A DNA stretch of 64,000 bases, taken from an uncultured Candidatus Saccharibacteria bacterium. Lineage in GTDB: Bacteria > Patescibacteriota > Minisyncoccia > Phycocordibacterales > UBA918. The notes under the pieces are model-generated. The model was not told where the DNA came from and searched no databases. It saw only the letters and a program-made list of their open reading frames with translations. This document shows, one piece after another, positions 31,142 through 45,181 of the stretch. The position numbers and the translations under genes were made by a program. How positions within the stretch are numbered: position 1 is the stretch's first letter; every line of letters begins with the position of its first letter. The stretch spans positions 382 through 64,381 of the forward strand of contig CAYGLK010000002.1 in the NCBI GenBank assembly GCA_964350985.1, written 5' to 3'.

Positions 31142-31158
31142 TTTAAGAACTTTTATAG
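31142..31158. repeat. Island repeat copy R16 (partial: gtttaagaacttttatag); left end of cassette array
   Basis: Matches the 3' part of the repeat consensus (gttagaacttttat); overlaps the stop codon of the NUDIX-like gene. Confidence 0.5.
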
Positions 31159-31608
31159 TAAGTTCTCAGAAATAAGGAGAGTTCTTGTGCACTCACCCAT
31201 TTGGCCACCGTTCTCTTTATTTATTAAATCTAGTAGCTTTATTGGAGTTACCCACCTCATTTCAGTATATTCTTCAGTATATTCTTCAGTATTAAAATTA
31301 ATATTTCCCTCGTAGCCTTCAACAACGTAATCTGTCATCTTTAAATCATATTCTCCCCTGTCTACCAATGGTGATACCCCGAGCGGAACCTTATTTAATG
31401 TTACTTGTTCCAGTCCGAGTTTTGTCTTTACTAGTCTATTTGCAACCTGAGAAACATTCTCCCCTGGTCTTATATAAGTTGAAGGGATAGACCAAGCATT
31501 TGGAAATGAATCCTTATTAGGTGAACGCTTTAAAACCAACACTTTATCTAAGTCTCGAAATACTAATGAAATTGCTTCTTTGAAGTCTTTACTCATACAG
31601 AAAAGCAT
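31153..31608 (-). CDS. NUDIX-like hydrolase (degenerate Nudix box); cassette 1. Likely start at Met 31596
   Basis: GENVSQVANRLVKTKLGL at the Nudix-box position (REx2EE replaced), overall Nudix-fold size. Confidence 0.45.
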   Translation of the reverse strand: MLFCMSKDFKEAISLVFRDLDKVLVLKRSPNKDSFPNAWSIPSTYIRPGENVSQVANRLVKTKLGLEQVTLNKVPLGVSPLVDRGEYDLKMTDYVVEGYEGNINFNTEEYTEEYTEMRWVTPIKLLDLINKENGGQMGECTRTLLISENLL

Positions 31609-31643
31609 ACCACGTTGGGAATTAAATATAATCTAACTGTCTA

Positions 31644-31666
31644 TCTGAGACGATGTTAGAACTTTT
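31644..31666. repeat. Island repeat copy R15 (partial core tctgagacgatgttagaactttt)
   Basis: 20/23 identity to repeat core. Confidence 0.7.
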
Positions 31667-31669
31667 ATG

Positions 31670-31933
31670 CTAGAGAACAGAGAATAAGGCAGCCACGATA
31701 ATTGCTATTAACAAGGAAATTCCAAAGGAAATCAGTGATTTCTTAATTCGATTCTCGCTATTATAAACAAAACCTATTAATCCAAATATTAATGGTACCA
31801 CTATGAAATATACTGGTAAAATCCACAACCTATCCGTAAGTCCTTCAAGTGTGTGATTAGGGTTGGAACGACTAATAAAAAGAATCAGACCACTAACTAC
31901 CGTAGACGAAATAATTATTGATATGTTTTTCAT
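31670..31933 (-). CDS. Small 2-TM membrane protein; cassette 2
   Basis: Track ORF 31670..32083 reads through repeat R14 (..KKVLTSSHTAS..); real start taken at Met 31933 just downstream of a TATATTAT -10. Confidence 0.4.
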   Translation of the reverse strand: MKNISIIISSTVVSGLILFISRSNPNHTLEGLTDRLWILPVYFIVVPLIFGLIGFVYNSENRIKKSLISFGISLLIAIIVAALFSVL

Positions 31934-31945
31934 ACCTATAATATA

Positions 31946-31990
31946 GCAAATTGTGTTGCTGGCTGTGTGGGACGATGTTAGAACTTTTTT
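31946..31990. repeat. Island repeat copy R14 (gcaaattgtgttgctggctgtgtgggacgatgttagaactttttt)
   Basis: Full core; its left flank aaattgtgttgctg is identical to the flank immediately 3' of tRNA-Gln. Confidence 0.85.
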
Positions 31991-32122
31991 TATGCTGTAG
32001 TGTACAGGTTTTGAGAAGTCTATTTGACAAAGATGAATAACTAATGTATAAAACATGAGTGTCGAAAGAAAATCGATCTTCATGGATAAGTACCTTAAAT
32101 TAAATTACGAAGCGAGGGTGTC

Positions 32123-32452
32123 ATGTCGAGAATTTACGAAAAGAATAGAAACTCCCACCCCTCTAGCGCTAAGCTAGTAAGGCACTTGTTGGTGAAAGAA
32201 ATGAAACAAGTTCGAGGAGAAGGAAACGGTGGACTTCCGCAATACATAGGTATGCCATTACTTCTTCCACCCAACACAGTTCTTCAAACGCTTTTGGATG
32301 CTGAGTCATTCAAAAGCCCGATCTTTGTCTTGTACGAAGAAAGAGGGGTAGTAAACACCTACCAAACTCACAATGTCATCAGCTTTCTGCAAATTGGCGA
32401 CCTCTACTTCCTTTACACCGAGCACACTACCTATCAAGTAATGCTCGATTAA
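32123..32452 (+). CDS. Hypothetical protein (only plus-strand cassette gene)
   Basis: 109-aa ORF followed by a strong plus-strand terminator. Confidence 0.35.
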   Translation: MSRIYEKNRNSHPSSAKLVRHLLVKEMKQVRGEGNGGLPQYIGMPLLLPPNTVLQTLLDAESFKSPIFVLYEERGVVNTYQTHNVISFLQIGDLYFLYTEHTTYQVMLD

Positions 32453-32515
32453 ACTCGTCAAGAGTGAGGTCTTGTTTGATTCAAAGCATTTAAAGTGAAA
32501 TAGCCGCCCGAAGAA

Positions 32516-32560
32516 GCCTGGAGGAGCAAATGCTCAATCATGCTCCTCCAGGCGGTTTTT
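32516..32560 (+). terminator. Intrinsic terminator (gcctggaggagc...gctcctccaggc + GGTTTTT)
   Basis: 12-bp perfect stem and T-run on plus strand. Confidence 0.65.
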
Positions 32561-32569
32561 ATATAAAAT

Positions 32570-32598
32570 GGCTTTCTGGGACGATATTAGAAAAATTT
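32570..32598. repeat. Island repeat copy R13 (degenerate: ggctttctgggacgatattagaaaaattt)
   Basis: Core GGGACGAT-TTAGAA conserved; ends at the NADAR gene stop codon. Confidence 0.6.
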
Positions 32599-33073
32599 AT
32601 CCCAACAACTCTGACCTAAGCTCCATCCAAATTTCACCTAACCAATTCTTTCCCTGCCAATCTTCACCGCGTCCCCAACAACTGTCTTTTGGTGAATCTT
32701 CAACCAATTTTGTACTTCCTGTTTCTTGCAAAGTCTTTTTAATATATTCATGCTGAGACAATTTATTTCGGCAAATATCCTTCATCACTTCTCTTTTTTC
32801 TTCCTCCCAATTAATGCTTAGCTTTCCTTGATACTTAATAGCAAGTTTTAAGGCGTCATGTGCAGATTTTGCGTTTGCTATCTCCTCGATAATTTCTGAG
32901 TCATTAAAGCCAGCTGCCTGGAAAGCATGCTCTGACGTTTGCCATTCACGCCCCTTCCACGTTACGGCAAATGCGGCAAAATTTGAAAAACAATAACCAA
33001 ATTCTCCAGCATAAAAAAGAATTGGGTCTGTGATTTGTTCTGAATATTGATTCTCACCCTTGATGACAAACAT
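32597..33073 (-). CDS. NADAR-domain (YbiA/DUF1768) protein; cassette 4
   Basis: ILFYAGEFGYCFSNFAAF...WQTSEHAFQAAGF...LVEDSPKDSCWGRGEDWQGKNWLG are hallmark NADAR motifs. Confidence 0.8.
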   Translation of the reverse strand: MFVIKGENQYSEQITDPILFYAGEFGYCFSNFAAFAVTWKGREWQTSEHAFQAAGFNDSEIIEEIANAKSAHDALKLAIKYQGKLSINWEEEKREVMKDICRNKLSQHEYIKKTLQETGSTKLVEDSPKDSCWGRGEDWQGKNWLGEIWMELRSELLG

Positions 33074-33077
33074 GATA

Positions 33078-33163
33078 AAAGTATATCAAAGTTCCGTCGT
33101 ACCTGTTTGGCATAGATTTTAGAGTCGAAAATAAGTCTCAAATATCATACTGGCTGTTAAAGG
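33078..33163. repeat. Island repeat copy R12 (extended, degenerate: aagtatatcaaagttccgtcgtacc...gaaaataagtctcaaatatcatactggctgttaaagg)
   Basis: About 80% identical over about 85 bp to the extended copy upstream of the MBL gene (43966-44040). Confidence 0.7.
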
Positions 33164-33293
33164 TTTGGCCAGGATTCGTTTATTTAAATAAAGAGCTTTT
33201 GAAATCAGATACTGTAGCAGTTTTAATATTTTGTACACGACCTATCACCACCGCACCTAAAGATAAATCCTGCAGCGACAAAATTTTTACTTA

Positions 33294-34586
33294 TTATTTC
33301 ACCTTAACTCCCTCCGGAATACTGTTTGGATCAACAATAAATCCTTGCATGTCCTTACGTCCAATAATTACCGGGAAGCGTAGATGTCCCCGCGGTGTGT
33401 ATGTTGCAATTGAATCTATCTTTTTACCCTTCATTTTGAATTGCAAAGATACAGTTTGGCGTCTCTGACGCCCGCTACCTGAACGAACGCTTACAAATTT
33501 ATTACGCTCGTCTAGACCCAACTCTTCTACTAAGTCACTATCTAGTGACGTACGATAAGCACCTGTATCCACCTTGGCTCGTACCGTCTTCTTTTTCTTA
33601 TTGCCATAAATAGTAATCTTCTCTATGACCGATAGTATATTAGAAGGAATATCTTCAACGGTTTCAAGCGATACTTCCGCAAAAAGTTTTTTTGCCAATT
33701 CAACCCCTCGCTCAATTTTTTGAACCTTAAGATCAGCTATTCTTTCTAAACGAGTACGTAATGAAGCTTGGTTTGCTACTTGTATTCCTAATCCGGGTCG
33801 AGCATTTATTTCAAGCACCAACGGACCATGCTGTTGATCAAGTACAACATCAATACCCGCAAAGCCTAGTCTTGAGCATAGCTGAGCCTTTACTGCTACT
33901 TCTAAAATCTTGTCCCAATCAGGAATTTTGATGCCACGCACTTTTGTTTTAGTTCCTGGAATGTATTCTGTGACCTGTTGATTGACTACTCCATAAGTAG
34001 TAATACCTGTTCTCATGTCTATACCCACACCTAGAGCACCTAAGTGTAGGTTGGCTTTACCATCAGAAAAGATAGTCGGTAGACGCATCATCGCCATCAC
34101 CGGTACGCCGTTACAGACAATCAAACGAACATCTGGCACGCCTTTACTTATGTATTTTTTGAAAAAAGGATGTGGAATTATGCGATCTTCTATAAACGCA
34201 GCGTCTGGAAGATTATTAAGCGAATGCTCACCGTCAAGCGTACTAAAAATGATTCGCTCGAGCTCCGCTATATCTATGTCATTATTTTTTTCAGTACTTC
34301 CATGAGTACCATTCCACTTGCGCACCACTGTAATACCACGCCCACCATAACCGCGTGCTGGTTTCACTGCAAAATCCTTCGGTAGCAAAGACCAATCAAA
34401 ATTACGAACATCTTGCAATGAACGAAATACTGCCAAAATCGCATTGGTAGGAACATCATTTTCTAGTAAACGCTTTTTCGTCAATAACTTATCATCAGCT
34501 ACTAGTTTTTGACTACGTCGATTGAACTGTCTTATATATAAGTAATTGCGAGCATTCATGCCCAGCATTGAAGTGCTGATAGCCAT
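33294..34586 (-). CDS. RimK-related ATP-grasp (alpha-L-glutamate-ligase-like) enzyme fused to a C-terminal retropepsin-like aspartic protease domain
   Basis: ATP-grasp core motifs (PDVRLIVCNG, GPLVLEINARPGL); C-terminal RAKVDTGAYRTSLD (D-T-G aspartyl protease signature). Confidence 0.75.
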   Translation of the reverse strand: MAISTSMLGMNARNYLYIRQFNRRSQKLVADDKLLTKKRLLENDVPTNAILAVFRSLQDVRNFDWSLLPKDFAVKPARGYGGRGITVVRKWNGTHGSTEKNNDIDIAELERIIFSTLDGEHSLNNLPDAAFIEDRIIPHPFFKKYISKGVPDVRLIVCNGVPVMAMMRLPTIFSDGKANLHLGALGVGIDMRTGITTYGVVNQQVTEYIPGTKTKVRGIKIPDWDKILEVAVKAQLCSRLGFAGIDVVLDQQHGPLVLEINARPGLGIQVANQASLRTRLERIADLKVQKIERGVELAKKLFAEVSLETVEDIPSNILSVIEKITIYGNKKKKTVRAKVDTGAYRTSLDSDLVEELGLDERNKFVSVRSGSGRQRRQTVSLQFKMKGKKIDSIATYTPRGHLRFPVIIGRKDMQGFIVDPNSIPEGVKVK

Positions 34587-34590
34587 ACAA

Positions 34591-35565
34591 CTAATCTAGT
34601 GAAACTTTATTAAATCGAAACACTTCAAACAATCGTAGACCAAAGTAGCGGCCAACTAGAATATTTGCAGGTATGACAAGGAACAATACTTCTGGATACA
34701 AAATAATAAAATTCTGGATTGCAATACTTGTAGCCGCTAAATAGCCGACCAAACCAATTACTATTGTTGTAGCGGTGATCATAAATGTTTCTGAACTACT
34801 CTTGTGTAATTGTACTGATACGATCATGTCTCCAAGTAACATCAAAACCAAAATTGGGAAAATTGATACGCTCAAAATACGTTCAAAATCAAGTACAACT
34901 CCTACAGACAAGGCTGCAAACACAGCTAGTGATAGAAGTACCATCGACAACGAGCGCTTTGGATAAAACATGATTTTTAATTTTGTGAGACTTATTTTAG
35001 ATATATACGAAGCAATAAGAATTGCACTCAATACCAGTAATCCAACAGTTATACCGACTGCAACCAGTGCAAACGCTAAGGCAATAGGGACCAACATATC
35101 CAAAGTCGGAAGACCAACTACTGTCCGAACAAAACTAACAAGTAAAGCTAGGAACGGGGTGAGCAGGATCAAAAAAATTGTATTTGCTGGTACACCAGCT
35201 CTCACAGATTCTTGTACCCAAAAAGCCATACCATTAAACCACCCCAATTTATCAACCAAACGATCTTCAAACAGTGAGATGATTGCTACTTTTTCTGACA
35301 ACTCTTCTGGCTGGGTAATATCTTTTGATTGTACCAGTTCACGCTGAGAAATAATGCCAGCCGCGGTTGTAGAAGGTGTTGCATCTTCTGCGTTAACCGT
35401 GCCGTTAGTAGTTGTAGTGGTACTCGTTGCCACAAGTGACTCCTCAGATTGAAACTGAAAATTTGAATTAGAACCCTGAGCAAGTCCAGCCTGCGGCACA
35501 CTAAAAAACGTCGTACAAACTACAACTAGTGTGAGCATCAAACATTTGTTATATATAAATTTCAT
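34591..35565 (-). CDS. Seven-TM membrane protein of the inactive-transglutaminase-fused-7TM family
   Basis: Secreted N-terminal segment then about 7 TM helices; genomic context (between QEGLA and RimK-related ATP-grasp genes) matches the described triad. Confidence 0.5.
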   Translation of the reverse strand: MKFIYNKCLMLTLVVVCTTFFSVPQAGLAQGSNSNFQFQSEESLVATSTTTTTNGTVNAEDATPSTTAAGIISQRELVQSKDITQPEELSEKVAIISLFEDRLVDKLGWFNGMAFWVQESVRAGVPANTIFLILLTPFLALLVSFVRTVVGLPTLDMLVPIALAFALVAVGITVGLLVLSAILIASYISKISLTKLKIMFYPKRSLSMVLLSLAVFAALSVGVVLDFERILSVSIFPILVLMLLGDMIVSVQLHKSSSETFMITATTIVIGLVGYLAATSIAIQNFIILYPEVLFLVIPANILVGRYFGLRLFEVFRFNKVSLD

Positions 35566-35566
35566 A

Positions 35567-36850
35567 TTACCAATCAGTTAAAATTTCTAAGGCTTTCAAT
35601 GCTTTGATGTGGCGAGGCAGCAACGGGTTATATTTACCTAGAAAAAGTTTAGGATAGATATGTGGCTTTTCAGACAATAGATGCCAAATCTCAATATTAC
35701 CTTCCATATAGACTATATCTCTTGTGTAAATAAAGCCAGTGCTTTGTCCAGTGGTACCACGAAAGATACGTACGCACACATCCCAAGCAGAGCGTAAGGG
35801 CACTAATTTTTGATGCTCTTTGCTCACGGTCGCTAAAATTGTGTAGTAATCAACCATCACACTAAACACTGATCTAAAGTCTCGAGGTGTACCGTCCATA
35901 CCCACAGCAAGACTAGCGGCCATATAGCGATCAAAACCATAAAATTCGGTTGCTCCCTCACACTGTTGTTGAACGTATGAGGCAACGCCTTCTTCTCCTT
36001 GCAGATAAGAATCCAAACCAATTTGAAGTAAATGTAGGTTACTCCCGGCTCCACAATACGAACGCCGCACATGCACTCCGATCTCGTGTGTTGCCAATGC
36101 CTTAACTTGCAGCTTAGTCAGTAACTTAGGACGAGCAAGTAACTTTTCCTTACCAGGGATGTAGATAATCCTTTGTGGTGTACTCACTGCAAAATTGACT
36201 CTTTTGTTTTCTTGGTCTACTTGGATTTTCCACCCTGTTATCTCATACTCATCGAGAGTTTCTCTAAAAACAGCCACAACTTCATCAGGAGTCTGAATAA
36301 AAACATCATCGTGTACTAATGGAGGTAATATATCCGAACTGATATCTACTCCAGTTACGTTAATTTTAGAAAAGATTTTTTTAAGATGTCGAACTTCAAC
36401 TAAATGCTCTGGGCCCGCTAGTTTAGTCAGATTCATCACCTTTTTGGCGATATACGCAAAGTATTTATTCTTTGGTTTACCGTGCAACTGACAGCTTAGA
36501 CGATAAAATTCTTTATCGTCACTATTCATCGAAGCATTAAACATACCAACTCTGTTAATTTGATTTGTTATTTTTGCCTCATAGAGCTTTTTAACGACCT
36601 CGTTCTCTTCAGTTTTAACAATCTCTTGTAAAAGCAATTCTAAGCTTTTACAAGAAAGCGGCTCATTCATTTTTGATTCAGTATTGCTTGTGTATGAAAA
36701 AAGAGGGTTTTCTATTTCATTATCCAAAAAACGCTCACGCTCTTCGTTGTCGATTTTCATACGACTCTGGATCCAGTCCACATCGTCACTATAGCTCTTA
36801 TTTATGGCTACTAGCTGGCTAAACCAAGATCCATCGTAAATTTGTGCCAT
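35567..36850 (-). CDS. QEGLA-motif (DUF1704) family protein
   Basis: HEIGVHVRRS and LQGEEGVASYV (QEG.A-like) motifs; first gene of the three-gene module. Confidence 0.5.
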   Translation of the reverse strand: MAQIYDGSWFSQLVAINKSYSDDVDWIQSRMKIDNEERERFLDNEIENPLFSYTSNTESKMNEPLSCKSLELLLQEIVKTEENEVVKKLYEAKITNQINRVGMFNASMNSDDKEFYRLSCQLHGKPKNKYFAYIAKKVMNLTKLAGPEHLVEVRHLKKIFSKINVTGVDISSDILPPLVHDDVFIQTPDEVVAVFRETLDEYEITGWKIQVDQENKRVNFAVSTPQRIIYIPGKEKLLARPKLLTKLQVKALATHEIGVHVRRSYCGAGSNLHLLQIGLDSYLQGEEGVASYVQQQCEGATEFYGFDRYMAASLAVGMDGTPRDFRSVFSVMVDYYTILATVSKEHQKLVPLRSAWDVCVRIFRGTTGQSTGFIYTRDIVYMEGNIEIWHLLSEKPHIYPKLFLGKYNPLLPRHIKALKALEILTDW

Positions 36851-36919
36851 ATTGGCTAAAACATTAGCATTAACGCCACAATTTGTACATTATCCAAGAG
36901 TGATAAATGAAGTGTTAAT

Positions 36920-36949
36920 GGCCGTCTGGGACGAAGTTAGAACTTTTTT
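36920..36949. repeat. Island repeat copy R11 (ggccgtctgggacgaagttagaacttttttt)
   Basis: 27/31 identity to core. Confidence 0.8.
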
Positions 36950-36981
36950 ACTCTATATTTAGTCAAATAAATCTCTATTGA

Positions 36982-37425
36982 TTACTTTTCTTCAAAAAAC
37001 TCTGAATATTGACTTCCTTGCAACATAGACTCTAGAGCCTCCTTCATAAACGGCACAAATTCAGATAGTCTCTCACCCACAGGAATCCACATTACTTCAC
37101 TGCACCTGTGTGGCTCGGTATTGACTGGATCTTGGTCACAACACTCAATTTTGAAATAATAATGAGTTCTATCATGTCTACCCTCAACATTTCGGTTGTA
37201 CTGTATGTGAACAAAACTAATATCGTCGACTGAAACATCGATACCAACCTCTTCTTTTGCCTCACGCACTGCTGCTTCTCGAGGGGTTTCATCAGGGTCA
37301 ATGTGTCCAGCTGGCATATTGAGGCGACCATCACAATATCCAGTATTGCAACGACGACCTACAAACCATTTACCATCACACTCAAGTAACAAACAGACAG
37401 CAGGAATGATTACATGTTTTTCCAT
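36982..37425 (-). CDS. NUDIX hydrolase; cassette 6
   Basis: Canonical Nudix box GHIDPDETPREAAVREAKEEVGI. Confidence 0.85.
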   Translation of the reverse strand: MEKHVIIPAVCLLLECDGKWFVGRRCNTGYCDGRLNMPAGHIDPDETPREAAVREAKEEVGIDVSVDDISFVHIQYNRNVEGRHDRTHYYFKIECCDQDPVNTEPHRCSEVMWIPVGERLSEFVPFMKEALESMLQGSQYSEFFEEK

Positions 37426-37475
37426 ACATCAAAGTATATCAAAAGTTCAAAAGTGAAGGTATGAAGAATATGTTT

Positions 37476-37530
37476 ATAAATAAGCCTCAAATATCAAGCT
37501 GGCTGTGTGGGACGATGTTAGAACTTTTTT
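37476..37530. repeat. Island repeat copy R10 (ataaataagcctcaaatatcaagctggctgtgtgggacgatgttagaactttttt)
   Basis: Full extended copy. Confidence 0.9.
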
Positions 37531-37532
37531 GA

Positions 37533-37916
37533 TCAATATATAAGAAAAGCCGTACTCCAGGTGGCTTTCCTGTCATACGACTTACAATTCTTACAATGCT
37601 CAACCAGGTAATCATAAACCCGCATCCCATTCCATGGGAAATTATCAAGTTTCTGGGGAATATTTGGAAGATCTGGAGGAACAACGAAGATTACATCCAG
37701 ATCTCCTTCATCATCAGATTTTTGGATACGAATTCGATCTCCCTCCTTCACTTCGTACCAGTCTGGAAAATAACTTGATTTTTCGTTTCGTTTGAGAATT
37801 TTGTCTGATATTAGCCCGAGTTCTCTGAGCTCCGATTGCTCAATCTTTCTACCAGTACAAGTTGGTTGAAAAACAAAATCGGAACAACCAACATAGGTCT
37901 CCAGCAAAATAATCAT
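37533..37916 (-). CDS. Hypothetical protein; cassette 7
   Basis: 127-aa ORF ending 2 nt from the R10 repeat; no recognisable family. Confidence 0.4.
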   Translation of the reverse strand: MIILLETYVGCSDFVFQPTCTGRKIEQSELRELGLISDKILKRNEKSSYFPDWYEVKEGDRIRIQKSDDEGDLDVIFVVPPDLPNIPQKLDNFPWNGMRVYDYLVEHCKNCKSYDRKATWSTAFLIY

Positions 37917-37967
37917 TGTCGTTATCTCTTGTTAACTGACAGGATAATACAACAGAATATAGTTGAC

Positions 37968-38419: not shown

Positions 38420-38475
38420 AATGTGCATTATAACAAAAGTTCTATAGTCCTTGACGGGTACTAAATTTCAGATTT

Positions 38476-38528
38476 AAAAATAAGCCTCAAAAATGTTGCT
38501 GGCTGTATGGGACGATGTTAGAACTTTT
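38476..38528. repeat. Island repeat copy R8 (aaaaataagcctcaaaaatgttgctggctgtatgggacgatgttagaactttt)
   Basis: Full extended copy. Confidence 0.9.
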
Positions 38529-38988
38529 ATAGATACAATATCTTAATTCCAAGACGCTCTGCCTGCTCGTGCTCCCACTTAGAGCCGAAAGATGTTTGCC
38601 AATCTGGTAAAAAATAAAACTCGGAAATGTGTCCAGATTCAAAAAGAGGTAAATAAAACTGATTTAATAAATCCATATCATATCCAGCCTGCTCTGTGTT
38701 CGATCTAATATTCTGTATTGGAACCTCAAAAGGTATTTGATTAAAAATTTTAACTCCCTCCTTTGATAAATTTTCTATAGTAACTTCAAAAAGCTCCAAA
38801 TTTTTCTCAACTGAACCTAATCCTCCAGTTGATATAGGGCCGCAAACTTGTATGACAGGTTGTGGCATTCGCTCAATAACAGACATCGCTATTTTTTGGA
38901 GGTCATAATAATTTCTAGCGTTTTCTAAAAGAATATAATCTCCTGGTTCCCAGTATTTGTAATTCATAGCTAGCTCTTTTTCTTCCAT
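38527..38988 (-). CDS. DUF4406 / nucleoside-deoxyribosyltransferase-like protein; cassette 9 (second gene)
   Basis: VIQVCGPISTGG...YFLPDWQTSFGSKWEHEQAERLGIKI fits DUF4406-like pattern; overlaps upstream MTase gene by 19 nt. Confidence 0.45.
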   Translation of the reverse strand: MEEKELAMNYKYWEPGDYILLENARNYYDLQKIAMSVIERMPQPVIQVCGPISTGGLGSVEKNLELFEVTIENLSKEGVKIFNQIPFEVPIQNIRSNTEQAGYDMDLLNQFYLPLFESGHISEFYFLPDWQTSFGSKWEHEQAERLGIKILYL

Positions 38989-39644
38989 TTCAATAATAAG
39001 AAACCTGGGTATGTATCTACTATTTGTTCAGCTGCACTATCAAAGCGCTCGTCATAAGCTTCTAATATAAAATGATCTAACATAAAGGAAGAGAAGTACT
39101 CTTTTAAGGTATGTGTAGGCTCTTCAAAAGTTAGCTTTCCATCAAAGCAAATAGACTCCACAATCTCCTTTTCAAAATAATCTTTTGGTTGTTTCTTCTT
39201 TTCAATAAACTGCCTTAATGGATGAGCTACTAATAGTACAAAATAACCCCCCGGCTTTAACACACGAAATACCTCATTCCATATGGGTTCCAAATCTGAA
39301 GCAGTCTGCAGTGCATATTTTGAAAATACATAATCAAAACTATCAGATTCTGATGGAACATCCTCAAACAAACCATATTTAAAATCTAATTCTGGATAAC
39401 TCTCTTTTGCCTGCATCAGTAATTCTCTTGAGGCATCGATACCAAGAACATAATCGGCACCTAATTGTGAGAGCAAATTAGTTTCAAAACCATTACCAGA
39501 TCCAAGATCCAAGATTTTTCTTCCCGAAAGATCCTCAGGTAGAACTTCATTATATGCTGCACGACTATCTACATTACCTAGCTCTAGAGCATCAGAAAAT
39601 TCAGTCGCAATGTTATCGTACTGATGACTTAAGCTTTTATTCAT
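38970..39644 (-). CDS. Class I SAM-dependent methyltransferase; cassette 9 (first gene)
   Basis: Motif I ILDLGSGNG, motif II/III spacing; leaderless promoter TGGTATACT upstream. Confidence 0.8.
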   Translation of the reverse strand: MNKSLSHQYDNIATEFSDALELGNVDSRAAYNEVLPEDLSGRKILDLGSGNGFETNLLSQLGADYVLGIDASRELLMQAKESYPELDFKYGLFEDVPSESDSFDYVFSKYALQTASDLEPIWNEVFRVLKPGGYFVLLVAHPLRQFIEKKKQPKDYFEKEIVESICFDGKLTFEEPTHTLKEYFSSFMLDHFILEAYDERFDSAAEQIVDTYPGFLLLKWKKKS

Positions 39645-39715
39645 AAAAGTAAGTATACCAAAAACAAGACTGTCCTCAAACTTTTATACGTTTTAAAATA
39701 TAGCTGCTTTAGCGA

Positions 39716-39748
39716 GCTGGCTGTCTGGGACGATGTTAGAACTTTTTT
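39716..39748. repeat. Island repeat copy R7 (gctggctgtctgggacgatgttagaactttttt)
   Basis: Full core. Confidence 0.9.
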
Positions 39749-39876
39749 GATATAAAAAGCGGTTGCGCGCCGTTACATTATGTAAATACACGTAAATGAA
39801 ACTCTGCTATCAAAAGTAGAAAACCGCTCCCCCCATGCGGTTTTCATGGTTAGAGCGGTTAGAGTTGTGGTTGATC

Positions 39877-40791
39877 TCATCGAATTGTCAGGGCATTGTC
39901 GATGGAAAGCACGAGAGCTCCCATCTGTTGCTTGCCTTCAATCAACAGCTCCTTCAATTGATTGAGTTCGTCCATGCTCGCTCCATTGATTGCTTTCGCA
40001 AACTCTGGACCCCGCATCTCGAGAAGAACATCCATATCTGCACTCAAACGTTGGAAGAACCGTTCGGCATGACGACGCACATCACGAGGCCTTCCCGTGC
40101 GTTTCTCGCCAGTAATACTCTCCACACACTTGCGTGCATGAGCAAGCCGAAAACGAAGTGGAACCCTGAGCATTTGCTGATACACCACCAGCTGCTGTTC
40201 CGTCGAAAGAGCCGAAAGTACGACAGCTTCACCAAAACGAAGAAGTTCCTTTTCGTTGGTTTCGGGATGCATCTTTTGCTGAAGTTCGGGTACAAGCCGC
40301 TGCAGCGAAAGGTATTGGTAGACCCAAGAAGGCGACTTGTCCAAACCCTCAGCTAGCAGTGCTACCTTTTCATGTCGATCCACCTGGTATTGCAACGCGC
40401 AAGATATTTCCATGTGCGTTTGGCCTTCCCGGTGGTGATTGGAAATCAAGGAAAGCAAATGTTGCTCGCGATCTTCAGGATTTCCCTCCTCAACACAAAT
40501 CCGGATGGTCTGAAGACCGGCAATCTGGTGAGCCAGCCAACGACGTTCGCCGTCGATGATCTCATAATCACAACCATCTTCGGTGGTGGACAGTTTTCTG
40601 ACCTGAATCGGCGTACGCTGGCCATGCATGACGATTGAACGAGCAAGGCTGCGAAGCGCTGATTCTTTGAAATAGGTTCGTGGCTGATTCTTGTACCGAC
40701 GAACCGATGACACAGGTACACGTAATTCGTGTTGGCTTTGAACCTCTGGTGTGCCGTCCATATTCCCTCCCCAATAACTCTCAAGGCCCAA
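39877..40791 (-). CDS. ParB/Sulfiredoxin N-terminal-domain (ParB-like nuclease) protein; cassette 10, GC-rich (about 50%)
   Basis: YEIIDGERRWLAHQIAG is the ParB-Nter DGxxR motif; markedly higher GC and different codon usage from neighbours. Confidence 0.6.
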   Translation of the reverse strand: MGLESYWGGNMDGTPEVQSQHELRVPVSSVRRYKNQPRTYFKESALRSLARSIVMHGQRTPIQVRKLSTTEDGCDYEIIDGERRWLAHQIAGLQTIRICVEEGNPEDREQHLLSLISNHHREGQTHMEISCALQYQVDRHEKVALLAEGLDKSPSWVYQYLSLQRLVPELQQKMHPETNEKELLRFGEAVVLSALSTEQQLVVYQQMLRVPLRFRLAHARKCVESITGEKRTGRPRDVRRHAERFFQRLSADMDVLLEMRGPEFAKAINGASMDELNQLKELLIEGKQQMGALVLSIDNALTIR

Positions 40792-40838
40792 TGCCTGAGT
40801 TGCGGACCATTAAATACGTGTTCTTCGATTATGTCAAT

Positions 40839-40871
40839 GCTGGCTGTATGGGACGATGTTAGAACTTTTTT
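40839..40871. repeat. Island repeat copy R6 (gctggctgtatgggacgatgttagaactttttt)
   Basis: Full core; HAD gene stop TAA overlaps its T-run. Confidence 0.9.
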
Positions 40872-41469
40872 AACAATCAACTTTCAGTAGCCGCAATTCA
40901 GTTATGAGATTATCATAGTCAGTAAATAAGATTGATTTAATTTCTAATTTTTTTGCAGCGTCAGTATTTTTAACCTGATCATCAATAAAGACCACCTCTT
41001 CAGGAATTAATCCCGTAATAGTTAAGGCTCTATCAAAATAGAGAGGGTCAGGCTTTTTCAAACCTTCCTTAAAAGACAATATCTCATAATCAAAGTATTC
41101 ATAAAGACCCATTTCAATATCTGCCCCATATCTTTGTTCCGTTAAATTGGTTAGTGCGGCTAATACATAATTTTTCTTAAGTTGCTTTAGCAAGGAAAGT
41201 ACTTGAGCATCCACAGATGACAATCTTACAGTTTCTTCACTCCACACATTTAGCATATCCTCTACTCTGAACTTGTTGTTAATCCCAAAAGCACAAAGCA
41301 TGTGTTCTGAAGTGACAGCTCCTGTCAAAAGATCATTTAAATGTTCTTCATGGTAAGCAGAGACTATATCAGCTGAGATTCCGACTCGCTCTGAAAATAG
41401 TTGGTATATTTTCGAAAAATCACCATGTGTAATTACTTTATGAATATCAAAAAAAATACCTTTAATCAT
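40870..41469 (-). CDS. HAD-superfamily hydrolase; cassette 11 (second gene). Start at Met 41469
   Basis: IKGIFFDIHKV (motif I variant) and VVFIDDQVKN (motif IV). Confidence 0.6.
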   Translation of the reverse strand: MIKGIFFDIHKVITHGDFSKIYQLFSERVGISADIVSAYHEEHLNDLLTGAVTSEHMLCAFGINNKFRVEDMLNVWSEETVRLSSVDAQVLSLLKQLKKNYVLAALTNLTEQRYGADIEMGLYEYFDYEILSFKEGLKKPDPLYFDRALTITGLIPEEVVFIDDQVKNTDAAKKLEIKSILFTDYDNLITELRLLKVDC

Positions 41470-41525
41470 GGCGCAAGTATAACAAAACCACCCCAGCGAG
41501 AAAACTATCTCCTCGCATAGGGTGG

Positions 41526-42065
41526 TCACAAATACCGCGTCAAAATTTCAACAACTTCATCCATTTTCTTGTCGGACACATCAACCACGGCGACAACTGG
41601 TATATTACCTTGGACGAGCGCTGGATTACCCCACTCATCGGATATTTTCTTGTAGACACCAATGTCGTGTGGTTTACCCAAAGAACCCCTTTCGACGCAA
41701 AGAAATCGCTGTCTGCGAACTTCTTCTCTACAGGTTAAGTTAACGACCTGCAGCTCGACTTCCAGCTTTAGACACAGGTCACTCAGCCAGAGCAGGTAAT
41801 CCTTACCAATATGAGCATGGTTTGAATGCGTCATGATGAGTGTCTGCACAGAGCCAGATTCCGCTGCACTACGAATAATGACCTCCCTGAGACTGTAAAG
41901 CAACTCAGTGGAAGCACTTCCGAGCCAAGCATCTCCATAGATTGATTTGACAATGTTGGTGGTCAAGTGGTTGTGCACCAGAGGATTGTTGGTTTTTTCT
42001 GAAAGAGCTGCACCAATCGTCCTCTTACCTATCCCGCAACCGCCGCTTATCAAAAATAGCTTCAC
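41526..42065 (-). CDS. P-loop NTPase, small nucleoside/nucleotide-kinase-like; cassette 11 (first gene)
   Basis: Walker A ISGGCGIGKRT at N-terminus, 179 aa. Confidence 0.6.
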   Translation of the reverse strand: MKLFLISGGCGIGKRTIGAALSEKTNNPLVHNHLTTNIVKSIYGDAWLGSASTELLYSLREVIIRSAAESGSVQTLIMTHSNHAHIGKDYLLWLSDLCLKLEVELQVVNLTCREEVRRQRFLCVERGSLGKPHDIGVYKKISDEWGNPALVQGNIPVVAVVDVSDKKMDEVVEILTRYL

Positions 42066-42134
42066 GGATTTCCCCCTTTAAGTAATTGATGTGTTTTTTA
42101 TCTATAACACATATTTAGTATTCTGTCACTAGTT

Positions 42135-42167
42135 GCTGGCTGTATGGGACGATGTTGGAACTTTTTT
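42135..42167. repeat. Island repeat copy R5 (gctggctgtatgggacgatgttggaactttttt)
   Basis: Core with one substitution. Confidence 0.9.
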
Positions 42168-42245
42168 GACACAAAAACAGCCCGCCGAAACGAGTCCATA
42201 GGACTGTCTTTGCGAGCTTGGTAGATCATACAATTGACACTCAAA

Positions 42246-42770
42246 TTACAGTTTGACACCGACATATTGGCCACTGCATACAAAGCCGGGACCTAAAAAA
42301 TGGTCATGCAGATTCAGGGCGTCGTCGATGAATTCACCAGTGTTACTGTCGTACCGCAACATCCCACCGTATGTGCCATTTGGCTTGTCCCCTCGGCTGC
42401 CGAAGCAGCAGAAGTAGTTGACCGAGCCCTCCCTCATTTCAGGCTGGTGTTCGGTCAAATAAGCACGGCATTCGCGCAGGTCGGCATACCGATACCCTAG
42501 GCTAGGAAGCGTCGGATCGCCGTGTTTAGGGGATACGATAGCCATTTCCAGCGTTCGCGCGTTGTAGACCTCAGGAATACTGAATGTGACACTACGTCCC
42601 CAATCACCTTCCCCCGATACGACTTGTGCTGGAGTGTCCGGTATCTCGACAGTCTGAGGATTGATGAAATCATCATTTCCAAAGATAGCGGTCCCTACCC
42701 AGAGAACGATTCCGGCAAGACCGCCGAACACAACCGTTCCAGCGAAAACATTTGCAAAAGTACTGGCCAT
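42246..42770 (-). CDS. Hypothetical membrane-anchored protein; cassette 12, GC-rich
   Basis: 174-aa ORF, N-terminal TM, GC about 52%. Confidence 0.35.
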   Translation of the reverse strand: MASTFANVFAGTVVFGGLAGIVLWVGTAIFGNDDFINPQTVEIPDTPAQVVSGEGDWGRSVTFSIPEVYNARTLEMAIVSPKHGDPTLPSLGYRYADLRECRAYLTEHQPEMREGSVNYFCCFGSRGDKPNGTYGGMLRYDSNTGEFIDDALNLHDHFLGPGFVCSGQYVGVKL

Positions 42771-42845
42771 CTTTAAACTCCGTTAGGTTGAGAACGAGAT
42801 TGTTCAAGTAAAACAATAACACTGTAAAACATGTATGTCAATACT

Positions 42846-42876
42846 GCTGGCTGTCTGGGACGATGTTAGAACTTTT
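42846..42876. repeat. Island repeat copy R4 (gctggctgtctgggacgatgttagaactttt)
   Basis: Full core. Confidence 0.9.
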
Positions 42877-42939
42877 CTATCAATATAAAAGGGCCCCGTT
42901 TTCACAGGACCCTCCTTTTCTCTCTGTATCCGCCGAGCG

Positions 42940-43218
42940 TCAGATGTAAACGAAGTACAGAATGATAGTCAGAACCGACAGACTGAATGAGATTGCCATG
43001 GACACCATTCCGCTCCAGCTCTTCCTGAGAAAGAACTCTGTGGCAAATGCAGCCTGCACGACCGCAAAGATGGCGAACATTTGCCACGCCACGCCAGCAA
43101 CGATACCGGTACGGATGATTGCGACGGGTTGAGGAATCAGGGCGATGATATTTACAAAGCCCATCAACCACATCACCTTGTTCCAGTGGAACTTTTGGAT
43201 GAACTCTTCACGGGTCAC
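42940..43218 (-). CDS. Small 3-TM PQ-loop (SemiSWEET-like) membrane protein; cassette 13, GC-rich
   Basis: 92 aa, three TM helices, LIPQPVAIIRTG resembles the PQ motif of TM1. Confidence 0.35.
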   Translation of the reverse strand: MTREEFIQKFHWNKVMWLMGFVNIIALIPQPVAIIRTGIVAGVAWQMFAIFAVVQAAFATEFFLRKSWSGMVSMAISFSLSVLTIILYFVYI

Positions 43219-43282
43219 GAGACTCTCCTTATTTAGCCCTGAATTATTAATATAAGAGCATATTTTTTATGCTTTGTAAAGT

Positions 43283-43315
43283 GCTGGCTGTATGGGACGA
43301 TGTTAGAACAGTTTT
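43283..43315. repeat. Island repeat copy R3 (gctggctgtatgggacgatgttagaacagtttt)
   Basis: Core with 2 substitutions. Confidence 0.85.
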
Positions 43316-43317
43316 AA

Positions 43318-43959
43318 CTAGAAATCTTTAGTCTCTCCATTACCTAACCTAACAAAATTAATACCCTTGGAACTTAACTGATTCTCAAATAGACCATATA
43401 TTAGCGCAATTCCATCTTCATTTAGCAACCAATCGTGTACCGGGAATGTTGTTTTAGGATTTACTCGCAAAGCGTAAGAAATAGCATCAGAAGATTTACA
43501 CCAGGGACCAGCTACAGGTAAGGCTAATACCTGAACCTCTTTACCTGGTTCTGTATATGCATCTCCTGGATAGAAGAGTTTTTTAGAAATAAAGTAACCT
43601 GTATTTTGCACCAAACCATATTCTTCAAATATTTCTGCGTGCTTACCATCATAGGCTTCTATAGAAACCCCATCTACGGCTTCTTCAGACCTCCCTTCCA
43701 GTACTTGGAAATTAATACCCAACCCGCTTAGAATTTTTCCAACACTACTATTTGTGACAATCCTTACTTTGGGATTATTTTTTACAATCTCTTTAATAGA
43801 CTCACTGTGCAGATGGTCTGTGTGTTCATGAGTAATTAGAACCAAATCAATATTCATTAACTTATTTTGAGAAACACTAAATTTTCCCGGGTCAGTTAAA
43901 ATCCTCTTACCGTCAACCTCTATAAGAAGACAGCACTGTCCAAATTTTGTAATTTTCAT
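43318..43959 (-). CDS. MBL-fold metallo-hydrolase; cassette 14. Start at Met 43959 (track ORF reads through repeat R2)
   Basis: LVLITHEHTDH (HxHxDH) motif; leaderless promoter TGGTATACT-tttaata-ATG. Confidence 0.75.
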   Translation of the reverse strand: MKITKFGQCCLLIEVDGKRILTDPGKFSVSQNKLMNIDLVLITHEHTDHLHSESIKEIVKNNPKVRIVTNSSVGKILSGLGINFQVLEGRSEEAVDGVSIEAYDGKHAEIFEEYGLVQNTGYFISKKLFYPGDAYTEPGKEVQVLALPVAGPWCKSSDAISYALRVNPKTTFPVHDWLLNEDGIALIYGLFENQLSSKGINFVRLGNGETKDF

Positions 43960-44014
43960 TATTAAAAGTATACCAAAGTTCCGCCGTACCCGTCCGGTAT
44001 AGAATTTAGGTGTT

Positions 44015-44070
44015 GAAAAATAAGCATCAAATCTCGAGCTGGCTGTCTGGGACGATATTAGAACTTTTTT
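44015..44070. repeat. Island repeat copy R2 (gaaaaataagcatcaaatctcgagctggctgtctgggacgatattagaactttttt); extended conserved region starts about 43966
   Basis: Full extended copy. Confidence 0.9.
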
Positions 44071-44071
44071 G

Positions 44072-44443
44072 TCATTTCCGAACGTTACCACTACCTAGAT
44101 GGAAGTGTAACTGCGCCACCTCCTGTCGGCTTCCACCATTAATCACAATTGTGTAGTCAGTCTCCTGCCAGCCATTATCTTTGATAATTTCCTGAGCCAC
44201 TTTGTATACCTCTGCCACGTACTCAAAGTCATTAGGTTGAAGAGCGGAGATATTTTTAATTGCCTTCTTAGGTACGATTAAAATATGATTTTCCCAGTAT
44301 GGTTTGGGGTGCCAAAATGCTAATACTTTTTCTGTCTCTTGGATTCGTTTCACTGGTAGCAACTTTGAAAAATTGCCGAATGCAATACCTACGATAAGTT
44401 CTCCTAATGGTGACTTTGCTAAAGCTAAAAGTGCTTTTTTCAT
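44072..44443 (-). CDS. HIT-family (histidine triad) nucleotide hydrolase/transferase; cassette 15
   Basis: AQLHFHLGSG histidine triad; 123 aa. Confidence 0.75.
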   Translation of the reverse strand: MKKALLALAKSPLGELIVGIAFGNFSKLLPVKRIQETEKVLAFWHPKPYWENHILIVPKKAIKNISALQPNDFEYVAEVYKVAQEIIKDNGWQETDYTIVINGGSRQEVAQLHFHLGSGNVRK

Positions 44444-44484
44444 AGCAATAGTATACCAAAAGTTCTAAATCCCTTTTTAATGTT

Positions 44485-44538
44485 GAAAAATAAGCTCCAA
44501 ATGTGTTGCTGGCTGCATGGGACGATGTTAGAACTTTT
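44485..44538. repeat. Island repeat copy R1 (gaaaaataagctccaaatgtgttgctggctgcatgggacgatgttagaactttt)
   Basis: Full extended copy; flank tgtgttgctg matches tRNA-Gln 3' flank. Confidence 0.9.
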
Positions 44539-44542
44539 ATAA

Positions 44543-45181
44543 CTACAAAACCATCTTCGCGAATATTCTAATCCATTTAATTTCAGCTCTGCCGTGAACG
44601 TCTTCTTCATTTACCACCTCATCCACCCTGAAACCAGTTTCCTCTAACAAACCCGTTAATTCTTCACTCTTATAGTAGCGAAAGAATCTATCGTGATTTG
44701 ATAACTTATCAGATACAATTTCAGTTTTATTACTACCTAATTGTTCTTTCACATAGATATAAACCCATCCATGTGCTTTAAGTACCCTCTTAAACTCTCT
44801 CACGGCATTCCTTACATCATCAAATGTTTCCAGATGTACTAATGACGCATGCGCCCAAACACCATCGAAGGTCTCATTGGGAAATGGTAACTTAATAAAA
44901 TTTCCATTTATAAATTCAATTTCCGGGTGTAATTTTTTTGCTACTTTAATTAGTCCTGTAGATATATCAATGCCAGTCACTTGAGCTCCAAAGGAAGCTA
45001 GGGTTTCTGAATCTCTTCCGTCTCCACAACCGACATCAAGAATTCTTGGTGTATCTTTAGATATTTTATCCAAGAAACTTTTTGCAGTGTCATTAAATTT
45101 TTTATCTCTAGTATCTAGAGAATATTTATCAGCATTGTTGTCGTACCAGTCAATTGTTTCTTTGAGTCCAGAGACTTTCAT
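44543..45181 (-). CDS. Class I SAM-dependent methyltransferase; cassette 16 (adjacent to tRNA-Gln)
   Basis: Motif I ILDVGCGDGRD; about 210 aa. Confidence 0.8.
   Translation of the reverse strand: MKVSGLKETIDWYDNNADKYSLDTRDKKFNDTAKSFLDKISKDTPRILDVGCGDGRDSETLASFGAQVTGIDISTGLIKVAKKLHPEIEFINGNFIKLPFPNETFDGVWAHASLVHLETFDDVRNAVREFKRVLKAHGWVYIYVKEQLGSNKTEIVSDKLSNHDRFFRYYKSEELTGLLEETGFRVDEVVNEEDVHGRAEIKWIRIFAKMVL

Follow-up and report, generated by a model that had tools for sequence, protein, structure and literature searches.

A putative tRNA-Gln-anchored, integron-like cassette array in a Paceibacteria-like member of the Patescibacteria, with nucleotide-related enzymes as a recurrent minority of its cargo

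Positions 31153–45181 of the 64,000-nucleotide (nt) stretch of DNA analyzed here (the window) contain a run of small genes located behind a tRNA-Gln(UUG) gene, and the question raised by this locus is whether these genes are held together by a common function or by the manner in which they were collected. An earlier reading made without database searches (the sequence-only reading) described the cargo as dominated by enzymes acting on nucleotides, nucleosides and ADP-ribose derivatives, and as something other than a random sample of accessory genes. The interpretation favored here, with a probability of roughly 60%, is that the interval is the body of a tRNA-Gln-anchored, IntI-independent, integron-like array of approximately 16 cassettes in Paceibacteria-like Patescibacteria, whose cargo is a size-filtered draw (median ~0.6 kb) from a large and mostly unannotated pool in which nucleotide and NAD-derivative enzymes recur as a minority. 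Nucleotide, nucleoside and NAD-derivative enzymes are unusually frequent in this array, and the overall tilt of the cargo towards them is modest.

Every real gene within 31153–45181 is encoded on the minus strand, forming a co-oriented string of approximately 16 small cassettes whose orientation is set by short sequence blocks. Almost each gene of the array is followed by such a block, which is 27 nt long, reads GTTCTAACATCGTCCCAnACAGCCAGC on the coding strand and is usually preceded by AAAA. Fourteen good blocks were found between 31636 and 44534, all in a single orientation, with none elsewhere in the 64 kb. The 13-mer GTTCYAACNYCGT occurs 13 times between 31650 and 44534, always on the minus strand, where 0.72 copies are expected. 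A decayed copy of the block is located at 33149–33178, and the distal end of the array is the stump of a block, AAGTTCTTAAAC (31141–31152). Each cassette is composed of a leader, often with an extended -10 box 6–8 nt ahead of the start codon, one to three genes, and the 27-nt block. Judged from the sequence only, the motif TTTGnTATAMT is present 6–9 nt ahead of the start codon in 9 of the ~15 window cassettes, and across all arrays TGnTAYAHT precedes the start by 6–8 nt in 32/115 cargo open reading frames (ORFs) vs 31/270 flanking or background ORFs (odds ratio 3.0, p = 1.4e-4). The GC content steps between 0.34 and 0.49 at block boundaries, with flanks at 0.39. The GC jumps and the presence of individual -10 boxes point to separate acquisition and expression of the cassettes. 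The TGnTAYAHT box is also found at this distance before 11% of ordinary genes (window and flanks of the other loci), which suggests that leaderless transcription may be widespread in these organisms.

The array is headed by the tRNA-Gln gene, which is intact and whose 3' end ...GTTCGAGTCCCTGTCCGGCAGC runs straight into the leader of cassette 1. The tRNA end and the sequence downstream of it, GTTCGAGTCCCTGTCCGGCAGC followed by AACACAATTTAGCTATATTT, are homologous to an internal block and its leader, ...GTCCCACACAGCCAGC followed by AACACAATTTGCTATATT, so the block can be described as a pseudo-copy of the segment of tRNA-Gln that extends from the T-loop to the 3' end. The right edge of the block coincides exactly with the position of the tRNA 3' end. 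Compared with the host tRNA end, the blocks of the window contain a 5-nt insertion and a different acceptor strand, and the block is identical in taxa whose own tRNA-Gln acceptor stems differ.

The exact 26-nt core of the block was recovered from 51 metagenome contigs and from 14 GTDB species, giving 65 other contigs altogether. Each of the 14 species belongs to the Patescibacteria, under the label Saccharibacteria, Paceibacteria, Kaiserbacteria or Elulimicrobium. Among named genomes the block is confined to the Patescibacteria, also termed the candidate phyla radiation (CPR). A profile search of these loci (designated by L and a number) identified 163 block copies, none of which is inverted within a locus. 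In ~24 loci the blocks are preceded by a tRNA-Gln gene in the same orientation, and tRNAs of other types are never adjacent. The 109 complete cassettes have a median length of ~590 bp, their ORFs run forward in 135 cases and in reverse in 38, and BLAST comparison showed nearly all of the 122 non-redundant cassette ORFs to be singletons. Sequence conservation ends immediately after ...CAGCCAGC, and the leader beyond this point travels with the downstream gene. Blocks ahead of identical leaders vary in their internal sequence, and the genes that precede them are not the same, which indicates that the block belongs to the upstream gene and that the joint lies directly after ...CAGC. The gene at 37997–38428, which resembles nucleoside 2-deoxyribosyltransferases (NDT), recurs together with its block in the array of L072 with 79% protein identity and different neighbors. 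The two cassettes are homologous from the -10 box through the whole block, and in both the TAA of the block is the stop codon of the gene. For the NUDIX and kinase cassettes, DNA-level comparison with homologues in L059, L050 and L027 aligned only the blocks, so these are not the same cassettes.

The closest of the genomes compared, L014, is a metagenome-assembled genome (MAG) labelled Ca. Paceibacteria that shares the prfB-ftsE-ftsX-pyrG-tRNA-Gln segment with the window at 74–94% protein identity and carries unrelated cassettes. With the restriction of the block to the CPR among named records, this identifies the organism as belonging to a reduced-genome lineage of Patescibacteria, and the sequence-only reading had remarked that such cargo would suit a reduced-genome symbiont. 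The farther a block is from the tRNA, the lower its quality tends to be (pooled rho -0.32, p = 0.012), a trend that tRNA-proximal insertion would produce. In other lineages, the genes upstream of tRNA-Gln are housekeeping genes (pyrG-ftsX-ftsE-prfB, or a dnaX-like gene with tandem histidine phosphatases), and the idea of a conserved integrase beside the tRNA was rejected on this ground. One lineage (L005, L022, L027, L035, L045, L055, L059) contains one to three tandem histidine phosphatase paralogues of ~210 amino acids (aa) directly upstream of tRNA-Gln, a site that may be a second variable spot; the family, His_Phos_1, accounts for 12/150 background ORFs. The only other contig with the exact pyrG of the window is a 7.5-kb Logan contig (L066), which stops shortly beyond pyrG and so includes neither the tRNA-Gln nor the array. 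Short-read assemblies are probably interrupted at arrays of this kind, and MAGs probably contain too few of them. The block has no exact match in the viral contigs of IMG/VR, and carriage by phages was rejected, as five IMG/VR matches to a degenerate head were isolated chance matches in coding sequence without a tRNA or array. Full-text literature searches found no description of such arrays in the CPR.

A version of the array built on another tRNA was identified in L068, where a mini-array anchored at tRNA-Asp (9653–12096) contains the blocks AGTTCCAACTTCGTTCACTAGGTCGCGCA and AGTTCTAACACCGTTCACTAGTCCGCTA. These have the head of the Gln block and a tail resembling the acceptor strand of tRNA-Asp. 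In ~20 loci a module of ~200 nt, termed class H, separates the next cassette from the block (or tRNA) ahead of it. The module opens with a terminator hairpin, after which come the 3' end of the genome's own tRNA in inverted orientation, a pair of hairpins, and finally a true copy of this 3' end in direct orientation. RNAalifold analysis of class H predicts that the inverted copy pairs with the direct one within a three-way junction, with compensatory changes in 21 of 29 pairs. The class H module is absent from the tRNA-Gln array of the window, and true, genome-specific copies of the tRNA-Gln 3' end are found only in some other loci. Rfam searches of the window (gathering thresholds) and of eight loci (E ≤ 1) gave no match for the block or for class H, and assignment of either to a known RNA family was rejected. 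A role of the inverted tRNA arm as a primer-binding site was also rejected, since the arm complements genomic sequence past the discriminator base and not the CCA end.

In the proposed mechanism, cassettes would be joined directly after ...CAGC by site-specific recombination, the newest beside the tRNA, with the tRNA playing the part of attI and the block that of attC. The joining enzyme would be supplied in trans rather than encoded nearby, and it could be a tyrosine integrase belonging to an unlinked element, a single-strand-specific HUH enzyme, or an enzyme of another kind. A wider proposal, tentative and held at less than even odds, is that Patescibacteria carry a phylum-wide, undescribed form of integron-like gene capture by tRNA mimicry. 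The constant head GTTCYAACNYCGT would here be combined with a tail resembling the acceptor of the anchoring tRNA (Gln in the window, Asp in L068), and joining at the tRNA 3' end would be carried out by an unlinked, putative recombinase. Class H modules would act as folded attachment sites, and cassettes with their own leaderless promoters would supply accessory nucleotide and NAD-derivative enzymes to auxotrophic episymbionts.

Class H sequences are also present elsewhere in the window. Behind tRNA-Met (53451–53525), the module occurs twice in tandem as a 150-nt repeat at 53149–53394 on the minus strand (repeat region 53149–53474). Each copy contains an inverted tRNA-Met 3' end with an inserted hairpin, AGCTTTTG...CCAAAAGGTGTACTG, a hairpin loop CTGTAAG, and a direct 3'-end copy, GATCGTTCCCTCCCGTCGACAC; the counterpart adapted to tRNA-Gln is found at ~20 other loci. 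Downstream of tRNA-Asp (52976–53050), the segment 52780–52975 contains a terminator hairpin followed by an apparent degenerate class H (...TGCGAGACGG...GTCGGGGTCGAGAG...). The relative L068 has instead, between tRNA-Asp and tRNA-Thr, an NDT-like plus NADAR cassette and a HIT cassette with tRNA-Asp-mimic blocks. A third repeat family, (G)GTTCCAAATTGCGAGTGGTATTAAAGCATCAGACTATT, separates cassettes in L081 (5660–7040), among them a NUDIX gene and a homologue of 37533–37916. In L008, L022, L057, L035 and L036, 3–5 kb between tRNA-Gln and the first block encode Rep proteins (REP_ORF2-G2P/RepSA-like; Viral_Rep plus S3 helicase), FtsK/SpoIIIE, and IS110-family and IS200-like Y1 transposases. No integrase was detected in these 3–5 kb intervals, including by a crude regular-expression scan.

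Family assignments of the cargo were made with Pfam gathering scores, NCBIfam and homologues (Table 1), and those of the sequence-only reading held in large part. Two NUDIX proteins (one with a dead box), the NADAR, HIT, HAD and metallo-beta-lactamase (MBL) fold proteins, two class I S-adenosylmethionine (SAM) methyltransferases (both Methyltransf_11) and the ParB_N protein score above the gathering threshold; the kinase falls below its cut-off, one NDT-like protein has no direct match and the DUF4406 match of the other is marginal. The NUDIX protein at 36982–37425 contains the exact canonical box GHIDPDETPREAAVREAKEEVGI (GX5EX7REUXEEXGU). The protein at 31153–31608 retains the fold, reads GENVSQVANRLVKTKLGL at the position of the box and has lost the catalytic RE..EE; since its Nudix box fails, it is probably not a canonical pyrophosphohydrolase. 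The NADAR protein scores 109.2 bits against a cut-off of 35.1 (PF08719) and covers profile positions 9–162 of 163. The triad of the HIT protein (53.1 bits) reads QLHFHLG, with the first His replaced by Gln and the last two retained, and motif I of the HAD protein reads FDIHKV, with His in place of the second Asp. The MBL-fold ORF (43318–44091) contains HEHTDH, and since its longer version runs across a repeat, translation probably starts at the ATG at 43959. The gene product of 39877–40791 had been called a ParB-like nuclease; it matches the NCBIfam model TIGR00180 parB_part (ParB/RepB/Spo0J partition) with 82.6 bits against 58.45 over residues 24–181, by which profile it is a full ParB/Spo0J-type protein in which nothing marks a nuclease.

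Weaker links were obtained for three proteins. That encoded at 38527–38988 matches DUF4406 with 24.4 bits (cut-off 22). The gene product of 37997–38428 had no direct match in Pfam, NCBIfam or PDB searches, and its family link runs only via homologues (44–46% identity) that carry PF05014, Nuc_deoxyrib_tr; the two NDT-superfamily proteins are not similar to one another. For 41526–42065, the AAA_18 score of 17.5 bits is under the cut-off of 29.4. A BLAST homologue of this protein is encoded in the array of L027 and is probably the single member that matches AAA_17/18/33 and cytidylate-kinase models. PDB sequence searches with the 37997, 38527 and 41526 products returned nothing below E = 0.02. 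The largest cassette is a three-gene peptide-ligase module with an ATPgrasp_ST plus aspartyl protease protein, a 7TM_transglut protein and a MATCAP/DUF1704 protein. Six ORFs (31670, 32123 on the plus strand, 37533, 42246, 42940 and 37997) had no direct family match in Pfam or NCBIfam. The structure of the 37533–37916 product predicted from an eight-sequence alignment has a pLDDT of 59, too low for a fold comparison, and a homologue in L080 has blocks on both sides. Most of the products listed in the sequence-only reading are therefore real, and its list lacked the three-gene module and six unannotated or membrane ORFs. Nucleotide- or NAD-derivative-related families account for 7–8 of the 20 array ORFs (35–40%), so the array is rich in such enzymes rather than dominated by them. 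None of these proteins is an equivalog of a characterized enzyme according to NCBIfam.

Table 1. Features of the tRNA-Gln array, listed from the tRNA to the distal end (TM, transmembrane; coordinates are those of the window)
Feature	Coordinates	Strand	Content	Evidence
tRNA-Gln(UUG)	45249..45320	-	array anchor	ARAGORN; Rfam 53.9 bits
Cassette 1	44508..45248	-	leader with TGATATACT -10 box; class I SAM methyltransferase 44543-45181; block 44508-44534	Methyltransf_11 86 bits
Cassette 2	44038..44507	-	HIT-family protein 44072-44443; block 44038-44064	Pfam HIT 53 bits
Cassette 3	43283..44037	-	MBL-fold protein (probable start 43959, stop 43318); block 43283-43309	Lactamase_B_3 87.7 bits
Cassette 4	42846..43282	-	membrane protein of 92 aa at 42940-43218, family unassigned; block 42846-42872; GC 0.465	
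Cassette 5	42135..42845	-	protein of 174 aa at 42246-42770 (TM segment at the N terminus), family unassigned; block 42135-42161; GC 0.491	
Cassette 6	40839..42134	-	overlapping weak P-loop kinase-like protein 41526-42065 and HAD protein 40870-41529; block 40839-40865	AAA_18 17.5 bits (below cut-off); Hydrolase 49 bits
Cassette 7	39716..40838	-	ParB/Spo0J-type protein 39877-40791; block 39716-39742; GC 0.491	ParB_N 61 bits; TIGR00180 82.6 bits
Cassette 8	38498..39715	-	overlapping SAM methyltransferase 38970-39644 and DUF4406/NDT-superfamily protein 38527-38988; block 38498-38524	Pfam
Cassette 9	37977..38497	-	divergent NDT-like protein 37997-38428; block 37977-38003	homologues; L072
Cassette 10	37498..37976	-	127-aa protein 37533-37916, rare unannotated family; block 37498-37524	
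Cassette 11	36917..37497	-	canonical NUDIX protein 36982-37425; block 36917-36943	NUDIX 66.7 bits; Nudix box regular expression
Cassette 12	33149..36916	-	MATCAP/DUF1704 35567-36850; 7TM_transglut 34591-35565; ATP-grasp + aspartyl protease 33294-34586; degenerate block 33149-33178	
Cassette 13	32567..33148	-	NADAR protein 32597-33073; conserved leader; degenerate block 32567-32593	NADAR 109 bits
Cassette 14	31958..32566	-	only a reverse-oriented 109-aa ORF 32123-32452 (+); strong hairpin next to the neighboring block 32567-32593; own block 31958-31984	
Cassette 15	31636..31957	-	87-aa membrane protein 31670-31933; degenerate block 31636-31662	
Cassette 16 (distal)	31141..31635	-	NUDIX fold with degenerate box 31153-31608; partial block AAGTTCTTAAAC 31141-31152 precedes a 1661-aa surface-protein gene	NUDIX 37.7 bits

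The other assessed ORFs of the window represent ordinary chromosome (pyrG, ftsX, ftsE, prfB, photolyase, ligA, gatA, lepA, murJ, msrAB and pilins), and an RNase P RNA is also present. The GC skew is negative in all 2-kb bins of 1–64000 and the minus strand encodes almost every gene, which places the whole window on one replichore with genes and blocks co-oriented with replication. The distal end of the array abuts a gene for a 1661-aa protein (26076–31061) with SpaA, SdrD_B prealbumin-like and peptidoglycan-binding domains, which is probably a surface adhesin. The prfB ORF (48742–49617) matches the PCRF domain only in its C-terminal part (profile positions 94–194), consistent with the usual programmed +1 frameshift upstream.

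Cargo elsewhere was sampled as 85 ORFs of at least 60 aa from short cassettes of other arrays, with 150 flanking ORFs of 80–250 aa as a control. A Pfam family was found for ~35–40% of the 85 ORFs, leaving ~60–65% without any. The commonest families are NUDIX (3) and AAA_18, which is similar to nucleoside monophosphate (NMP) kinases (3), then GNAT (2), and nucleotide-related singletons comprise dCTP deaminase-like, HD_3, CYTH, ASCH (plus DUF3850), RibD_C/DHFR-like and ART-PolyVal proteins. The nucleotide-related class amounts to ~14% of all 85 ORFs and ~40% of the annotated ones. Other annotated cargo includes YafQ, RelB, ParE, glyoxalase, APH, SDR, Clp, C39 peptidase, SET, EamA, GtrA, CutA1, exo/endonuclease-phosphatase and transporter genes. 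In L068, the divergent NDT-like gene adjoins a HIT gene and a NADAR gene (38% identity to that of the window) with which it is translationally coupled, and in L067 it stands beside a NUDIX gene; these NDT-like genes are 65–70% identical to that of the window. A NUDIX gene also neighbors the homologue of 37533 in L081. The recurrence of NDT-like genes beside NADAR, HIT or NUDIX genes favors a theme; other NDT-like homologues are in unrelated or core contexts. Equivalent islands repeat the same kinds of enzyme, in keeping with part of the sequence-only reading, and the enrichment of NUDIX is not significant, as detailed below. The overall profile resembles that of integron-cassette surveys, in which about two-thirds of metagenomic cassettes are of unknown function and the remainder include acetyltransferases, toxin-antitoxin genes and methylases (PMC7370490).

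Several findings weigh against the preferred reading of a cassette array with a recurrent minority of nucleotide-related enzymes. Pfam analysis of ten flanking genes identified no integrase or transposase, only housekeeping or surface-protein domains, and the remaining ORFs of the window, inspected by eye and with a crude regular expression for tyrosine-recombinase box II, are housekeeping-like and include no recombinase. A crude tyrosine-recombinase expression run across ~0.56 Mb of array loci also gave none. Excised circles, empty sites and excision products were not observed. The block lacks dyad symmetry, being conserved in sequence and asymmetric, and most junctions fold no better than shuffled sequences (only 2–3 of 14 with z < -2, one of these due to a terminator). 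With regard to the cargo, NUDIX, AAA_18 and GNAT each account for 2/150 flanking ORFs, counts that were taken from the top 25 of 99 families. Fisher's exact test was not significant for NUDIX (5/105 vs 2/150, p = 0.13), and gave p = 0.23 for AAA_18 (4/105 vs 2/150) and p = 0.044 for the two pooled post hoc, so the cargo tilt is statistically weak. The salvage role discussed below is read from family names and general knowledge of the CPR.

Selection of the array as a dedicated toolkit, one that scavenges or detoxifies nucleotides, nucleosides and NAD or ADP-ribose derivatives, is rather unlikely. The share of such families among the array ORFs here, the top rank of NUDIX and NMP-kinase-like proteins elsewhere, the accompanying dCTP deaminase, HD_3, CYTH, ASCH, DHFR-like and ART singletons, and the gene neighborhoods in L068, L067 and L081 all agree with non-random cargo. 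These classes nevertheless contribute only ~14% of cassette ORFs in other arrays, where GNAT, toxin-antitoxin, protease, SDR, transporter and glyoxalase cassettes are equally typical, and the largest cassette of the window itself is a peptide-ligase module. Together with the majority of cassettes without a family and the NUDIX test, this removes the basis for the claim that the cargo is not a random sample. The opposite explanation, that there is no functional theme, is possible, though the odds are judged to be somewhat against it. It holds that only single-domain proteins of 100–220 aa fit into a cassette and that NUDIX, HIT, HAD, GNAT, methyltransferase and P-loop kinase proteins are the most recognizable of these, for which the short median cassette, the occurrence of the same families in small flanking ORFs, the non-significant tests and the profile of integron cassettes (PMC7370490) all speak. 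It does not account for the independent, divergent NDT-like genes beside NADAR, HIT or NUDIX in three genomes, and the odds ratios for cargo families all lean the same way (2.7–3.7). The Nudix-box expression gave 4/144 vs 1/282. CPR bacteria are known to lack nucleotide biosynthesis. Under the preferred reading of a size-filtered draw, the most likely role of these enzymes, as predicted from their families, would be accessory salvage and nucleotide-pool sanitation in a nucleotide-auxotrophic episymbiont. NADAR, NUDIX, HIT, dCTP deaminase and ART-PolyVal ADP-ribosyltransferase are also families used in conflicts between phages and their hosts, and the sequence-only reading had offered defense or counter-defense on nucleotide second messengers as an alternative, extended here to ADP-ribosylation. 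Toxin-antitoxin cassettes in other arrays and an AbiEii gene downstream in L080 fit with this, as do PADLOC matches to PDC-S07 (NUDIX), ThsC2 (HIT) and mad2. All of these matches, though, are single generic domains with modest scores and form no complete system, the cassettes encode single, constitutively promoted enzymes without sensors or effectors, and the block is absent from IMG/VR viral contigs, making an anti-phage function quite improbable.

The origin of the array has rivals of its own. A classical integron or a cluster of attC sites lacking integron-integrases (CALIN), moved by IntI, would give cassettes of this size, diversity and co-orientation with a repeat after each gene, and one stop codon is indeed supplied by the repeat. 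This explanation is largely refuted and was rejected, as no intI gene or tyrosine-recombinase signature was found in the searches of flanks, window and loci, the repeat is an asymmetric 27-mer without attC-type folding at most junctions, the cassettes have their own promoters, and the anchor is a tRNA whose 3' end the repeat mimics. A further explanation dispenses with site-specific recombination: the blocks would be portable patches of homology at which cassettes are exchanged through natural transformation and RecA-dependent recombination, or regulatory 3'-end elements spread by duplication. The failure to find a recombinase nearby is in its favor, the blocks stand at every gene's 3' end with terminator hairpins often after them, and natural competence is documented in Saccharibacteria (PMC10633639). 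A length of 27 nt is, however, marginal for homologous recombination, and three observations are left unexplained: the block stops sharply where the tRNA has its 3' end, its tail varies with the tRNA (Gln vs Asp) on a head that is constant, and all copies are confined to one tRNA-anchored locus. Conservation of the block across CPR classes further argues for a dedicated machine, and homology patches or regulatory elements are accordingly regarded as improbable.

The CPR, or Patescibacteria, make up a large share of bacterial diversity, have tiny genomes, and exchange accessory genes in ways that are poorly understood. If the preferred reading of a tRNA-anchored array is true, the platform would provide a concrete, searchable mechanism for their flexible genome and a new example of site-specific recombination exploiting tRNA mimicry. 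It is common to groups labelled Saccharibacteria, Paceibacteria and Kaiserbacteria, and the 27-nt block is a simple probe for it. The arrays are a catalogue of what these symbionts find worth carrying, and the recurrent NUDIX, NDT-like, NADAR, HIT, kinase and dCTP-deaminase cassettes would, by their family assignments, point to nucleotide-pool management as one need.

Compared with known housecleaning and salvage enzymes (NUDIX/MutT, HIT/Hint, NADAR/YbiA, NDT and HAD nucleotidases), the cargo proteins agree in fold and family by profile, and the Nudix box of 36982–37425 is intact. They differ in the NUDIX protein without a box, the HIT protein without its first His, the HAD protein with His for the second Asp, and the kinase below threshold. 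Class H can be compared with integrative mobile elements exploiting Xer (IMEX) of the CTX-phi type, in which a folded single-stranded att site mimics a double-stranded one. The inverted and direct tRNA-end copies of class H pair across a covarying three-way junction, and on a single strand the module would rebuild the double-stranded tRNA-end site. It differs in that Xer or dif features are absent, the tRNA-Gln array contains no class H and most junctions have no inverted arm, and any link of class H to recombination is putative.

Tycheposons of Prochlorococcus are islands that grow at a tRNA 3' end by repeated insertion, with tRNA-3'-end-like direct repeats between units and newer units pushing older ones away (bioRxiv 10.1101/2020.12.28.424599). 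Tycheposon accretion, like that of integrative elements or cis-mobilizable elements (CIME) at tRNA genes, shares with the present arrays the intact tRNA, the addition of units at its 3' end and the tRNA-3'-end-like repeats, and other loci here hold true tRNA-Gln 3' copies and Rep/FtsK or insertion-sequence genes at the same site. In contrast to tycheposons, the units are single genes of ~0.6 kb without integrase or replication modules, and the repeat, instead of reproducing the host tRNA, is a pseudo-tRNA block common to distant CPR classes. With chromosomal integrons and CALINs, the array shares one-directional strings of small, unrelated and mostly single-gene cassettes (~0.5–1 kb) with a repeat at each 3' end, an inferred crossover at the far end of the repeat, greater decay of distal sites, and very diverse cargo that is about two-thirds unknown and includes GNAT, toxin-antitoxin, glyoxalase, methylase and NUDIX-type genes. 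Unlike them, it has no adjacent IntI gene, its repeat is an asymmetric 27-mer whereas attC sites are imperfect hairpins (R''/L''...L'/R') conserved in structure, many of its cassettes have a predicted leaderless-type promoter of their own in place of a common Pc, its anchor is a tRNA gene instead of attI/Pc, and its host phylum is the Patescibacteria. The cassette platform is more novel than the cargo it carries, and the nearest known systems are chromosomal integrons and accretion of the tycheposon type.

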